Origin: a virus
Taxonomy: Duplodnaviria; Heunggongvirae; Uroviricota; Caudoviricetes
Length of the DNA stretch: 40,696 nt
IMG/VR virus record: IMGVR_UViG_2541047870_000003
Direction: 5' to 3' (one strand)
Under the pieces are notes generated by a model that ran no database searches, had not been told where the DNA came from, and was given only the letters and a program-made list of their open reading frames with translations. Below, piece by piece: positions 16,673 through 24,727 of this stretch. Position 1 is the stretch's first letter. The number at the start of each line of letters is the position of its first letter. The position numbers and the translations under genes are program-made.

Positions 16673-16962
16673 TGGTGGATTTACGTAAAGCGGCGCGGGG
16701 GCAGATGTGCGCCGTCAGAATTCCTGGCTACTGCAATCACGATCCGGAAACGTCTGTGCTGGCGCATTACCGACTGGCGGGAACGTGCGGAACAGCGACA
16801 AAACCACACGATATGCAGGCGGCGATTGCCTGTAGCTCATGCCACGATCTAATCGACGGGCGGGTAAAAACCAGCGATTACACCAAAGAAGAATTACGCC
16901 TGATGCATGCAGAAGGTGTTTTTCGCACACAAGAAATCTGGAGAAAGGAGGGATATTTGTGA
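16672..16962 (+). CDS. DUF1364 family protein (YbcO-like), 96 aa, Cys/His-rich
   Basis: CxxH/CxxC-type motifs (CSSCHDL, CNHD); ATGG start overlaps upstream stop; recalled similarity to YbcO. Confidence 0.65.
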   Translation: MVDLRKAARGQMCAVRIPGYCNHDPETSVLAHYRLAGTCGTATKPHDMQAAIACSSCHDLIDGRVKTSDYTKEELRLMHAEGVFRTQEIWRKEGYL

Positions 16963-17501
16963 TTTACCCAACGAATACAGGAAAAAGCGGAGAACACCTT
17001 CGTCTCGCCACGCTGGAAAGTGTCTGGATTCAGGGCAAACTGCGTATGTGGGGGCGCTGGTCGTATATTGGCGGTGGCAGGTCAGGAAATATGTTCAATC
17101 AGTTGTTGGCATCCAAAAAATTGACGAAAACAGCCATCAATGAAGCCCTGCGCAGAATGAAAAAAGCGGGAATAGAGAAAGCTGAGCTGGAAGCGTTTTT
17201 GCGAGAGATGATCAACGGCAAGCAAAAGAGCTGGCTGGCGCATTGTACTGATGCAGAGGCGTTATGTATTGATCGAGTCATAAGTGAGGTGCTGGCAGAG
17301 CATCCAGGATTGATTAGCGTCCTTCGGCAACGGTATGAGGGGCGGGGGATGACCAAACGCAAAATGGCTGAATTGCTAAATGATGCACACCCAGAGTGGT
17401 GTTTTAGCACATGCGAAAAGCGAATTGCTAATTGGTTGGCCGTTGCTGAGTATGCGCTATACATTCCCATGCGAGAATCATTCGCTCAAAAAACGGCTTG
17501 A
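16959..17501 (+). CDS. Putative late antiterminator Q (positional call), 180 aa from GTG
   Basis: GGAGGG 6 nt upstream of GTG 16959, overlapping upstream stop; last gene before the AT-rich late-promoter region, tRNAs and lysis cassette. Family not recognised with certainty. Confidence 0.5.
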   Translation: MIYPTNTGKSGEHLRLATLESVWIQGKLRMWGRWSYIGGGRSGNMFNQLLASKKLTKTAINEALRRMKKAGIEKAELEAFLREMINGKQKSWLAHCTDAEALCIDRVISEVLAEHPGLISVLRQRYEGRGMTKRKMAELLNDAHPEWCFSTCEKRIANWLAVAEYALYIPMRESFAQKTA

Positions 17502-17586
17502 TTTTTTACGCATAAACTGCTTCAATTTTGCTACGCTTCGCAAAGCTGTATCGCGAGGCGAATCAAGCGCAATTAAACTTTAATAG

Positions 17587-17618
17587 AACCCGCCATCAAG
17601 CGGGTTTTGTTGTTATTG
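17587..17618 (+). terminator. Intrinsic terminator-like hairpin downstream of Q (AACCCGC-catcaa-GCGGGTT followed by TTGTTGTTATTG)
   Basis: Perfect 7-bp stem plus T-rich tail, seen directly. Confidence 0.5.
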
Positions 17619-17821
17619 TGGTGTGATATAAGAAACGACATTTAATATTGCCTTCAAAATAAATTTGTTTATATATTGTCGCGTATATTTTAAGTGAAGG
17701 TGAAATGTTCACATAAAATAAAAATACATAAATAAATTTACATAGCTTGACGCAAAGTGTTGTTGCGATTGGAATATTAAATTGTATCATCGAAAACGGT
17801 TCTGAGGGGGAACTCTTCTTT

Positions 17822-17903
17822 GCTCGGTGATATCGCTCGGTGATATCGCTCGGTGATATCGCTCGGTGATATCGCTCGGTGATATCGCTCGGTGATATCG
17901 CTC
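17822..17903. repeat. Perfect direct tandem repeat: 13-bp unit GCTCGGTGATATC x6 plus 4-nt partial copy; each unit has an EcoRV site
   Basis: Counted by hand from the sequence; units identical. Confidence 0.9.
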
Positions 17904-17918
17904 CCCTGAAGAACCAAT

Positions 17919-17994
<76 letters not shown>

Positions 17995-17997
17995 TAT

Positions 17998-18072
<75 letters not shown>

Positions 18073-18280
18073 GTTAGAGTCTTTCAGTCTGCGATGATGG
18101 GAAATCCCGGAGTGACTGAAAGACGTTTAAGTTATGAATGATCGCTTTTTTTAGCAAAATTGCTGTGCAGAAATACTAACCTTCGGGCAGGCGATCATTC
18201 ATAAGCACTCTGCTTTTATTCCGATTAACTGTGGGTGGTTTGTTGGATAGAGTGCTTTCCTTACTGTATATATTGTTTCG

Positions 18281-18306
18281 CCCGCTTTTGCGGGCTTTTC
18301 TTTTCA
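18281..18306 (+). terminator. Intrinsic terminator (GCCCGC-tttt-GCGGGC followed by TTTTCTTTTC); candidate tR'-like terminator between tRNAs and holin
   Basis: Perfect 6-bp GC stem plus U-tract, seen directly. Confidence 0.6.
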
Positions 18307-19993: not shown

Positions 19994-20130
19994 AATCTTA
20001 ACTACAATATGATTCATTTTGATGATTGTTTCATAAGGAACAGTGAAGTAAGATCTAAGAGGAGTTAAATTTTATACAGTATAATCATAATATTGCAGCA
20101 AGGTGGTTATAATTGAAAGAATATTTAGAT

Positions 20131-21588
20131 ATGAATACATCTCATGTAAGAGTTGTTACTCATATGTGTGGGTTCCTGGTTTGGCTCTATAGTCTTTCAA
20201 TGTTGCCACCAATGGTTGTAGCATTGTTTTATAAAGAAAAAAGCCTGTTCGTTTTCTTTATAACTTTCGTTATATTTTTTTGTATTGGTGGCGGAGCGTG
20301 GTATACAACTAAGAAATCTGGCATTCAATTACGTACCCGTGATGGGTTTATTATAATTGTAATGTTTTGGATTTTGTTTTCTGTTATTAGTGCATTCCCT
20401 TTATGGATTGACTCAGAACTTAATTTAACGTTCATTGATGCTCTGTTTGAAGGGGTTTCTGGAATAACAACAACAGGAGCAACTGTAATTGATGATGTTA
20501 GTTCATTACCTCGGGCATATTTGTACTATCGGTCACAGTTAAATTTTATAGGTGGTTTAGGAGTTATTGTTCTGGCGGTTGCTGTATTGCCATTATTGGG
20601 TATTGGTGGTGCAAAGCTTTATCAGTCAGAAATGCCGGGGCCATTTAAGGATGACAAACTCACTCCCCGCCTGGCCGATACGTCACGGACACTGTGGATA
20701 ACTTATTCTTTATTAGGTATTGCTTGTATTGTCTGTTATAGACTTGCAGGAATGCCTTTGTTTGATGCTATTTGTCACGGGATTTCCACAGTTTCGCTTG
20801 GTGGTTTCTCAACTCATAGCGAGAGTATCGGATATTTTAATAACTATTTGGTTGAGCTGGTGGCTGGTTCTTTTTCCCTGCTATCGGCTTTCAACTTCAC
20901 TCTTTGGTATATTGTTATTAGCAGGAAAACGATAAAACCTTTAATCAGAGATATTGAACTTCGTTTCTTTCTGTTAATAGCCTTAGGGGTGATCATTGTT
21001 ACCTCTTTCCAGGTCTGGCATATAGGTATGTATGACTTGCATGGAAGTTTTATTCATTCGTTTTTTCTTGCCAGCTCCATGCTCACTGATAATGGTTTAG
21101 CTACGCAGGATTATGCAAGTTGGCCCACGCACACGATAGTGTTTTTGCTGTTGTCAAGTTTCTTTGGGGGATGTATAGGTTCAACTTGTGGTGGAATTAA
21201 GTCACTTCGATTTCTTATACTTTTCAAACAAAGCAAACACGAGATAAATCAGCTTTCTCATCCCAGAGCGTTGTTGAGTGTAAATGTAGGAGGGAAGATA
21301 GTTACAGATCGTGTAATGAGGTCTGTATGGAGTTTCTTTTTTCTTTATACTCTCTTCACGGTGTTTTTTATACTGGTGTTAAATGGTATGGGATATGATT
21401 TTCTTACATCATTTGCAACAGTGGCTGCATGTATTAATAATATGGGATTAGGTTTTGGGGCTACTGCATCGTCATTCGGAGTGCTTAATGACATTGCAAA
21501 ATGTTTAATGTGCATAGCTATGATTCTTGGTCGCCTTGAAATTTATCCTGTTATTATATTGTTTTCAGGTTTTTTTTGGCGCTCCTAA
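20131..21588 (+). CDS. trkG: TrkG/TrkH-family K+ uptake membrane protein, 485 aa from MNTSHVRVV
   Basis: Polytopic membrane protein; recalled as Rac TrkG; sits in a region that looks AT-rich by eye. Track ORF starts at TTG 20113. Confidence 0.85.
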   Translation: MNTSHVRVVTHMCGFLVWLYSLSMLPPMVVALFYKEKSLFVFFITFVIFFCIGGGAWYTTKKSGIQLRTRDGFIIIVMFWILFSVISAFPLWIDSELNLTFIDALFEGVSGITTTGATVIDDVSSLPRAYLYYRSQLNFIGGLGVIVLAVAVLPLLGIGGAKLYQSEMPGPFKDDKLTPRLADTSRTLWITYSLLGIACIVCYRLAGMPLFDAICHGISTVSLGGFSTHSESIGYFNNYLVELVAGSFSLLSAFNFTLWYIVISRKTIKPLIRDIELRFFLLIALGVIIVTSFQVWHIGMYDLHGSFIHSFFLASSMLTDNGLATQDYASWPTHTIVFLLLSSFFGGCIGSTCGGIKSLRFLILFKQSKHEINQLSHPRALLSVNVGGKIVTDRVMRSVWSFFFLYTLFTVFFILVLNGMGYDFLTSFATVAACINNMGLGFGATASSFGVLNDIAKCLMCIAMILGRLEIYPVIILFSGFFWRS

Positions 21589-23632: not shown

Positions 23633-24727
23633 ATGAGCAGACCGGACTGGGGGGCGTTGCAGCAGGAGTATATTGCTGAATACACCCGCTCCGGTATATC
23701 TCCGGTGGCATGGTGTGAAGCAAGGGGACTGAATTACGCAACAGCCCGTCGTTACATCAAAAAACCTCCGAAAAATGCGCAGACAGAAATGCGCAAAACT
23801 GCGCAAAAAAGTGCGCAGAAAAAATCTGCGCAGACTGCACAAAAGCGGAACGAAAAATCTCAGGAAAAAAAGCCAGTATTCGATGCGGGCCTGAATGAGG
23901 GCGACGCGGAGGAATTTTCGTTCTGTCCCGATGAATTCGGCATTTCTGACCAGCAGGCTAAGTTTGCGATGCTTGTTGCTCAGGGTAAAAAGCCGACAGA
24001 GGCGTACCGACTAGCCGGTTATGAGGGGCAAGGTGCGACAGCTAACAGCAACGCCAGTCGTATGCTTAGAAATGCCAGGGTTTATCGTGCTATCAGCTAC
24101 TTCCGCAATCAGTACCAGAAACGCTATACCGCAGACCTGGATTTACTGGTGAGCCAGTTGATGGCCATTGTCCAGGCCGACCCCAATCAGTTGGCACAAT
24201 TTCGCCGTGTTAACTGCCGTTATTGCTGGGGCGAGAATCATCTCTACCAGTGGCGTGATATTGCAGAATTCGATAAGGCTGCGGCACAGGCCTCCAGAGA
24301 TGGTAAACCCGAGCCGGAATATGGAGGCCTCGGCTTTGTTGATAACGCCATACCCAATCCGGATTGCCCGAAGTGCTGCGGTGAGGGAACGGGACAGCTT
24401 TATATGGCTGATACCACACTGCTTGATGGGGATGCGCGGCAATTATATGCAGGGTCAAAGCTCGGAAAATACGGTGTTGAGATCCTGCTGGAGGATAAGG
24501 CTGCCGCCCGGCGTGAATTGTTGCGTTTGCTTTCTGCTGGCGGGGCATTATGTGCAGATAAGCGGCTACAGGAACTGGAAATTGAACGGCGCAGAATAGA
24601 AAACCAGAAGCTGCGCAAAGAGATCGAAACGGTGGAGGATAATGAACATCCCCAGCCTGTGGCGATCAATATTAATGTGGTTGATGCCAGAGTAAGGAGT
24701 GATGAAGATGATCTCTCCGACGCTTAA
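23633..24727 (+). CDS. Terminase small subunit (HTH-containing), 364 aa
   Basis: Immediately upstream of and overlapping terminase large subunit; HTH-like segments (GLNYATARRYI; KPTEAYRLAGYEG); Cys cluster CRYCWGE...CPKCCGEG. Confidence 0.6.
   Translation: MSRPDWGALQQEYIAEYTRSGISPVAWCEARGLNYATARRYIKKPPKNAQTEMRKTAQKSAQKKSAQTAQKRNEKSQEKKPVFDAGLNEGDAEEFSFCPDEFGISDQQAKFAMLVAQGKKPTEAYRLAGYEGQGATANSNASRMLRNARVYRAISYFRNQYQKRYTADLDLLVSQLMAIVQADPNQLAQFRRVNCRYCWGENHLYQWRDIAEFDKAAAQASRDGKPEPEYGGLGFVDNAIPNPDCPKCCGEGTGQLYMADTTLLDGDARQLYAGSKLGKYGVEILLEDKAAARRELLRLLSAGGALCADKRLQELEIERRRIENQKLRKEIETVEDNEHPQPVAININVVDARVRSDEDDLSDA

Follow-up and report, generated by a model that had tools for sequence, protein, structure and literature searches.

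The repeat array analyzed here lies at the Q-to-lysis junction of a lambdoid prophage, in a 40,696 nt stretch of Caudoviricetes DNA (IMG/VR record IMGVR_UViG_2541047870_000003; hereafter termed the window). The genes upstream of this region encode DUF1367, YbcO and a Q-like protein, which related records annotate as antitermination protein Q or DUF1133. The genes downstream encode a phage-21-type holin, a DUF1327 protein (YdfR family), an endolysin and spanins. An ORF for a TrkG-like potassium transporter (491 aa; 20113-21588) directly follows the lysis and spanin genes and is probably a prophage cargo gene. The coordinates of the features between the Q gene and the holin gene are collected in Table 1.

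Read directly from the sequence, the array consists of six complete GCTCGGTGATATC units followed by a terminal GCTC. Tandem Repeats Finder reports a period of 13, 6.3 copies, 100% matches, no indels and a score of 164, by far the strongest tandem repeat of the whole window. Both methods bear out the original prediction of six perfect 13 bp copies upstream of the tRNA genes, as well as the EcoRV site that it placed in each unit, since the 6 bp palindrome GATATC is present in every one. The end of the array is separated from the start of tRNA-Thr(UGU) by 15 nt. When up to two mismatches are allowed, the 13-mer occurs nine times in the window, versus 0.74 occurrences expected, and six of the nine make up the array. 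The other three (at 970, 1846 and 36991) fall within the range of shuffled sequences (shuffle maximum 4); that at 1846-1858 is a one-mismatch copy (GCTCGGTAATATC) distant from the array and within chance expectation. A full-text search found the 13-mer in no paper of the library that was covered. The window also carries an imperfect 36 bp tandem repeat of 2.1 copies at 23771-23844, with AAAAATGCGCA-type motifs and nested 10 and 12 bp periodicities.

The probable Q-linked late-promoter module and the tRNA cassette

The array had been proposed to sit between an AT-rich late promoter and the tRNA genes, where a qut or pause element would be expected. Homologs of the Q protein were fetched from 27 places (Escherichia, Shigella, Citrobacter, Salmonella, Klebsiella, Enterobacter, Pantoea and others). 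We compared the sequence that follows the stop codon and aligned 19 of the loci. In all 19, regardless of what comes next, the same module is present directly behind the stop codon: TTGnnn, a 17 nt spacer, TT(C/G/A)AAT and, a few bases further on, TA(C/G/A/T)GCT, then a short structured stretch and a AACCCGCC...GCGGGTTTTT terminator. In several homologs (for example, at locus L054) the lysis genes come almost at once after this terminator.

A similar order of elements characterizes PR' and 6S RNA of phage lambda, as well as the StxS short RNA that Stx phages make from PR'-tR' (PMC7547250). The module in the window is like these systems in its promoter, in a -10-like repeat near the predicted start and in a terminator about 80 nt downstream. 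It is probably a true pR'/pause/tR' unit that makes a 6S/StxS-like short RNA. In contrast, the array is found 200-300 bp further on, in a separate cassette.

Because the Q module occupies this place and the array lies beyond its terminator, the array is not at the position expected for a qut or pause element. It starts ~290 nt past the predicted start of the Q-linked promoter, whereas a qut site would lie within about 30 nt. Nor is it inherited together with a cognate Q gene: most loci with Q homologs (51-97% identical) carry neither the cassette nor the array (for example, L035 and L043-L058), and even a 97%-identical Q gene in Shigella (L035) has unrelated DNA behind it. The AT-rich stretch that had been taken for the late promoter instead belongs to the promoter region of the tRNA cassette itself, as its upstream part.

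The stretch from ~17620 to 18300 behaves as an inserted unit located between the tR' terminator of the Q module and the lysis genes; it comprises a predicted promoter of its own, a leader hairpin, the two tRNAs and a terminator. Its AT-rich region, which would act like an UP element, contains a second conserved TTGACG (17747-17752), and the A/T-rich upstream architecture is kept in sister cassettes. The predicted promoter lies 5-9 nt (mode 7) before the hairpin in all 47 distinct upstream variants, of which 44 were scored directly and three were placed by inspection, our script having picked the wrong -10 element. In the window, the -10 hexamer ends 7 nt ahead of the first G of the hairpin. 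From this spacing we infer that transcription of the cassette starts at the 5′ end of the hairpin. The -10 hexamer (17785-17790) is polymorphic, reading TATCAT in the window and TATTAT in many alleles and most sister cassettes, and the difference may correspond to unequal promoter strengths.

The hairpin with a T run that precedes the holin gene is likely the 3′ end of the cassette transcript. The position of the array between a conserved predicted promoter and tRNA-Thr agrees with the earlier suggestion that it belongs to the leader of a tRNA precursor. It would thus form the apical part of a hairpin at the predicted 5′ end of the cassette transcript rather than part of the late-promoter/qut region. 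The cassette would also be transcribed inside the Q-antiterminated late transcript.

The same tRNA pair, with a related leader, is found downstream of stx2 in phage phi467. The pair also occurs beside other Q genes, where it stands behind other tRNAs and not behind this leader. On the chromosome, the thrU-tyrU-glyT-thrT(tufB) operon combines the same tRNA-Thr(UGU) with a tRNA-Gly(UCC), and its promoter likewise has AT-rich DNA upstream. However, the chromosomal leader is about 9-14 nt long and has neither a hairpin nor a repeat. In this comparison, only the prophage cassettes have the GGUUCY...RGAACC hairpin.

Two perfect inverted repeats follow tRNA-Gly immediately (18079-18124, 11 bp with a 24 nt loop; 18132-18204, 14 bp with a 45 nt spacer), and neither has an Rfam match. 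The stretch 18018-18246 is about 80% identical to an unannotated segment of phage HK639 (44463-44690).

Table 1. Features around the repeat array, in window coordinates.
Feature	Position	Strand	Basis
Q-like antiterminator gene (DUF1133; weak PF06530 Phage_antitermQ match)	16959..17501	+	Domain match
Q-linked promoter/pause-like/terminator module	17498..17615	+	Conserved after the Q stop codon in 19 loci; terminator prediction
TTGATT hexamer of the Q module, overlapping the Q stop codon	17498-17503	+	
TTCAAT hexamer of the Q module, after a 17 nt spacer from TTGATT	17521-17526	+	
-10-like TACGCT of the Q module (pause-like element)	17532-17537	+	
Terminator hairpin with T run, Q module	17581-17612	+	Terminator scan
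AT-rich (23-29% GC) region upstream of the cassette promoter, putatively UP-element-like	17620..17760	+	Composition
Predicted sigma-70 promoter of the cassette (TTGCGA, 16 nt spacer, TATCAT)	17763..17790	+	Promoter prediction; 47 variants
Hairpin base, 5′ strand (P1 GGTTCT, internal-loop GA, P2 GGGGGA)	17798..17811	+	Inverted repeat, folds, conservation/covariation
Tandem array (VNTR part): six perfect GCTCGGTGATATC units plus GCTC	17822..17903	+	Sequence reading; Tandem Repeats Finder
Hairpin base, 3′ strand (P2 TCCCCT, internal-loop GA, P1 AGAACC)	17902..17915	+	Inverted repeat, covariation
tRNA-Thr (UGU), identical to chromosomal thrU	17919..17994	+	tRNA prediction (ARAGORN, Rfam)
tRNA-Gly (UCC)	17998..18072	+	tRNA prediction (ARAGORN, Rfam)
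Intrinsic-terminator-like hairpin with T run, 70 nt before the holin gene	18280..18295	+	Terminator scan

A conserved hairpin in the cassette leader

The array is nested in an inverted repeat whose arms, GGTTCTGAGGGGGA and TCCCCTGAAGAACC, form the base of a hairpin that ends 3 nt (spacer AAT) before tRNA-Thr. The form GGUUCY-GA-GGG...CCY-GA-RGAACC is shared by numerous divergent prophage cassettes, among which some of the changes are compensatory. We collected such leaders with a scan anchored on ...GAACC-N(1-8)-tRNA-Thr, which yielded more than 100 loci and 71 distinct upstream sequences. The 5′ part of the shared layout comprises an AT-rich region, TTGnnn, a 16 nt spacer, TAnnnT, 5-9 nt and GGTTCY GA RGG. 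Its 3′ part comprises a variable apical region, CYY GA RGAACC, 3-7 nt and tRNA-Thr.

RNAalifold recovers P1 and the start of P2. In an alignment anchored at both hairpin ends, 88% of the cells are paired, compared with 28-69% when the partners are slid. Pair 6-29 covaries among C-G (14), U-A (9) and U-G (4), and pair 9-26 among G-U, G-C and A-U; the observed covariation score is reached by 14 of 500 shuffles. Covariation and pairing together lend moderate support to an RNA stem, and the frequent G·U pairs point to a + strand RNA and not to a DNA palindrome.

The apical region varies between cassette types in both length (hairpins of 47-60 nt) and sequence, and keeps only the motif CGG(U/G)(C/G)A across types. 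No loop motif in this family of leaders is more strongly conserved, and the 13 bp unit contains it. Multiplying the motif, or burying it in a duplex, might have consequences. The GATATC core of the unit is absent from sister cassette types. A third inner stem that pairs the conserved loop motif (UGAC/GUCA in some types) is absent from the window's type.

Permissive searches (E <= 1) of the window and of two divergent cassette types against Rfam 15 returned only tRNAs and chance microRNA or plastid matches; nothing covered the leader except a spurious microRNA match that fell on the repeat itself. Neither the leader nor the terminator downstream has a sequence match in a preprint on the Pas sRNA or in its supplement. 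We also scanned IMG/VR with an unanchored pattern (GGTTCYGARGG-N25-55-GARGAACC), which proved too loose for an unbiased census. Most of what it matched was unrelated coding DNA hit by chance, and the genuine members that it added all stood, as before, in front of tRNA-Thr-like genes.

Two loci place the hairpin in a different setting. In L083 (2434-2863) and L108 (7151 onward), the same promoter-hairpin (GGTTCC...GGAACC) heads a non-coding unit of ~430 nt that ends at a terminator and lies just upstream of a tRNA-Thr/Gly cassette. This unit contains an STnc100-like RNA (RF02076; 38 bits, E = 1.6e-6, below the gathering score). Because it also heads this unit, the hairpin is not linked exclusively to tRNA processing, and it probably does not act as an antiterminator.

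Several identities for the leader were considered and rejected. A put-like antiterminator RNA is disfavored by the sRNA-like unit of L083, which has the same hairpin at its head and a terminator at its end, and by the expectation that lysogens would die if transcription read through constitutively into the lysis genes. A terminator scan found nothing at the hairpin, and the AAUGCCGAC that follows it does not qualify as the U tract of an intrinsic terminator. A decayed tRNA or minihelix was considered as well. ARAGORN and the Rfam tRNA model find nothing in the leader, and its tRNA resemblance (ACCA after the stem, a D-arm-like GCUCGGU) is too loose. A small ORF that runs from the leader into tRNA-Thr, as in the phi467 type, has its frame closed in the window's type.

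Stem-loops at the 5′ terminus stabilize E. coli transcripts, the ompA 5′ UTR hairpin being an example. The leader would resemble these if its hairpin starts, as predicted, at the transcription start or no more than 2 nt from it. In contrast to ompA, it heads a tRNA precursor (or, in L083 and L108, an STnc100-like RNA) and not an mRNA, and stabilization is hypothetical.

Copy number among relatives and the origin of the array

The original prediction had called for comparing copy number across related prophages, and had offered a variable-number repeat and recent slippage expansion among its readings. Our survey covered complete E. coli genomes that carry this leader (n = 184), IMG/VR loci and metagenomes. 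Of the complete genomes, 25 are multi-copy (22 with two copies, two with three and one with four), and all 25 fall in the group with at least 98.7% identity; the remaining complete E. coli genomes among the matches listed have one copy each. Allele sizes of four, three, two and one were verified by sequence in L076, L077, L078 and L079, respectively. The IMG/VR loci comprise 27 with a single copy, four with two copies and one that is cut inside the array. All 15 metagenome loci are single-copy.

A metagenome scan for at least three tandem units matched no contig, and high-copy alleles are therefore rare or poorly assembled. The usual state among related prophages is one unit. Six copies were seen in no other sequence examined, the maximum elsewhere being four. 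The stored sequences of L008 and L154 (IMG/VR) stop within the repeat array. Short-read assembly may have broken here because the alleles have several copies, and draft data would then under-count high copy numbers.

Loci with no more than one difference over 400 flanking nt carry 1, 1, 1, 1, 2, 3, 4 and 6 copies. A second haplotype group has one or two copies, and all further haplotypes have one. Copy numbers of one to six on near-identical flanks indicate that copy number changes far faster than point substitutions accumulate, and both suggested readings, a variable-number repeat and a recent slippage expansion, gain support from these alleles. Within the lineage that is almost identical to the window, alleles with two copies outnumber those with one (22 versus about 5), an excess that could be due to hitch-hiking or to a mild advantage.

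The single-copy allele reads GCTC-GGTGATATC-GCTC, with 4 bp of microhomology on both sides. We infer that expansion proceeded by slippage from this ancestral state, which is by far the commonest. Replication slippage between the two GCTC tetramers would have created the first duplication, and would make it exactly 13 bp. Once formed, tandem units would gain and lose copies rapidly, leaving alleles of 1, 2, 3, 4 and 6 on otherwise identical DNA. Units in single-stranded DNA are predicted to fold back on one another (-26.1 kcal/mol for six copies, z = -5.1), which should favor slippage.

The left GCTC is mutated to GATC, GAAC or GCTA in 20 loci, and all 20 are single-copy. Expansion is seen in 8 of 47 loci with an intact GCTC and in 0 of 20 with a mutated one, a statistically weak difference (one-sided p ~0.05 by our own hypergeometric estimate, for loci that are not independent) that agrees with the slippage model. 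Further slippage-type indels affect the G run of the leader (equivalent to window positions 17806-17810) in L018 and L141. They comprise an increase of the G run from 5 to 6 and a 7 nt G-rich insertion.

These characteristics match those of bacterial VNTRs or minisatellites, which vary by slipped-strand mispairing and serve in MLVA typing. The array shares with them identical head-to-tail units, copy differences on identical haplotypes, an intergenic location and a one-unit progenitor with a short direct repeat (GCTC) on either side. It differs from them in lying inside a structured RNA leader and in having a unit that is self-complementary as RNA via G·U pairs. We know of no use of the array as a typing locus.

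Folding of expanded alleles and possible functions

In the RNA, GAUAUC is palindromic and GCUCGGU can pair with itself at six of seven positions via G·U, so that tandem units are predicted to zip into one long imperfect helix. The predicted free energy of the hairpin changes from -18.9 kcal/mol with one copy to -29.7, -37.2 and -48.1 kcal/mol with two, three and four copies. With six copies it is -66.5 kcal/mol (z = -8.5) for the + strand RNA, compared with -43.0 kcal/mol for the - strand RNA. When one to eight copies were folded, P1, P2 and the acceptor stem of tRNA-Thr were predicted to be unchanged. Each extra unit would therefore just lengthen the G·U-rich apical helix of the + strand RNA, and expansion may be tolerated because this structurally modular arrangement disturbs neither the basal stems nor the tRNA fold.

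These results, together with the observed variability of the repeat, its position relative to conserved elements and the conserved basal hairpin, favor a simple explanation. With a probability that we put at roughly 0.8, the array is a young, hypermutable tandem duplication (a VNTR) that has no dedicated function of its own. Its six copies are the largest allele seen of an ordinary slippage polymorphism and are not an array of regulatory sites. We consider the array most likely neutral, although an effect on the processing or stability of the leader is possible. RNase III accepts helices of about 22 bp or longer, and the predicted helix of this length at four or more copies is the sole concrete route that we can see by which the array might have a functional effect.

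An unlikely alternative is that copy number serves as a tuning knob, in the manner of a contingency locus. Expansion would turn a short, open-loop leader hairpin into an imperfect duplex of more than 30 bp. This could alter access by RNase III or RNase E, the stability of the leader or its processing by RNase P, and thereby the supply of tRNA-Thr/Gly or of a leader-derived sRNA. The steep climb in predicted stability from one to six copies is in keeping with such a role, as are the RNase III length class of the apical helix at four or more copies, its G·U-dependent specificity for the transcribed strand, the conserved loop motif inside the unit and the predominance of two copies in one lineage. 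However, most genomes with this leader and all other cassette types do without the repeat, folding predicts no effect on the basal stems or on the tRNA, and alleles with many copies turn up as rare singletons, the pattern that mutational noise would give. Phase-variable contingency loci likewise have a hypermutable repeat beside a promoter, but there the repeats reside in promoter spacers or reading frames and have been shown to switch expression on and off, whereas the array lies at about +25 to +106 in an untranslated leader.

A speculative extension, which we regard as a long shot, would make the array the hypervariable tip of an undescribed conserved 5′-leader RNA element, with repeat number acting as a reversible expression switch. 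The element would combine two stems, P1 (GGUUCY/RGAACC) and a G-rich P2, with a tandem GA/GA internal loop and the CGG(U/G)(C/G)A loop motif. It would head stable-RNA cassettes of prophages, namely those for tRNA-Thr/Gly and, in some phages, the STnc100-like sRNA. If this were true, RNase P would free a leader sRNA ranging from 56 nt with one copy to 121 nt with six, and repeat number would multiply or bury the loop motif and so alter the activity or stability of the sRNA in a heritable, rapidly reversible manner.

It is very improbable that an error of assembly or sequencing inflated a locus with fewer copies to six. Such an error would account for the failure of any other sequence examined to exceed four copies, and the two IMG/VR loci that end inside the array indicate that assemblies may break there. 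Against this, the 82 bp array is shorter than ordinary reads, its units are perfect and in register with correct flanks, and alleles of two, three and four copies exist in independent complete genomes, which demonstrates genuine length variation at the locus.

We give hardly any credence to the proposal that the array is a set of DNA sites, or a qut or pause element, for the Q antiterminator or a host factor, even though each unit has a 6 bp palindrome and the Q gene lies upstream of the array. The promoter, pause-like element and terminator that are conserved behind Q genes are located elsewhere, at 17498-17615, and this terminator stands between the other two elements and the array. The near-identical Q gene of Shigella lacks the cassette, and the cassette is found also after stx genes, after a methyltransferase gene and beside a different Q gene. 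The notion of a binding-site array is further undermined by the single unit that is usual in relatives, by sister cassettes without GATATC and by the other copies of the motif in the window, which do not exceed the shuffle range. Moreover, a 13 bp spacing would set successive sites on different faces of the helix.

A repetitive peptide encoded on the minus strand (ORF 17917-17777, 46 aa) can be dismissed: its frame is open only because the repeat has no stop codons, the 13 bp period is not a multiple of 3 so that copy-number alleles shift the frame between the ORF ends, and the ORF collapses in one-copy relatives.

As a hypervariable tandem duplication, the array can be used as a fast-evolving marker to separate closely related lysogens. 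It also serves as a caution that short-read assemblies may break or miscount at such a site. For the DUF1133-type Q family, the comparison places the late promoter, a pause-like element and a terminator directly behind the Q stop codon. The leader itself, as a conserved 5′-leader hairpin of prophage cassettes with no Rfam match, is of modest novelty. If this leader is functional, the natural alleles with one to six repeats would be ready-made test variants.
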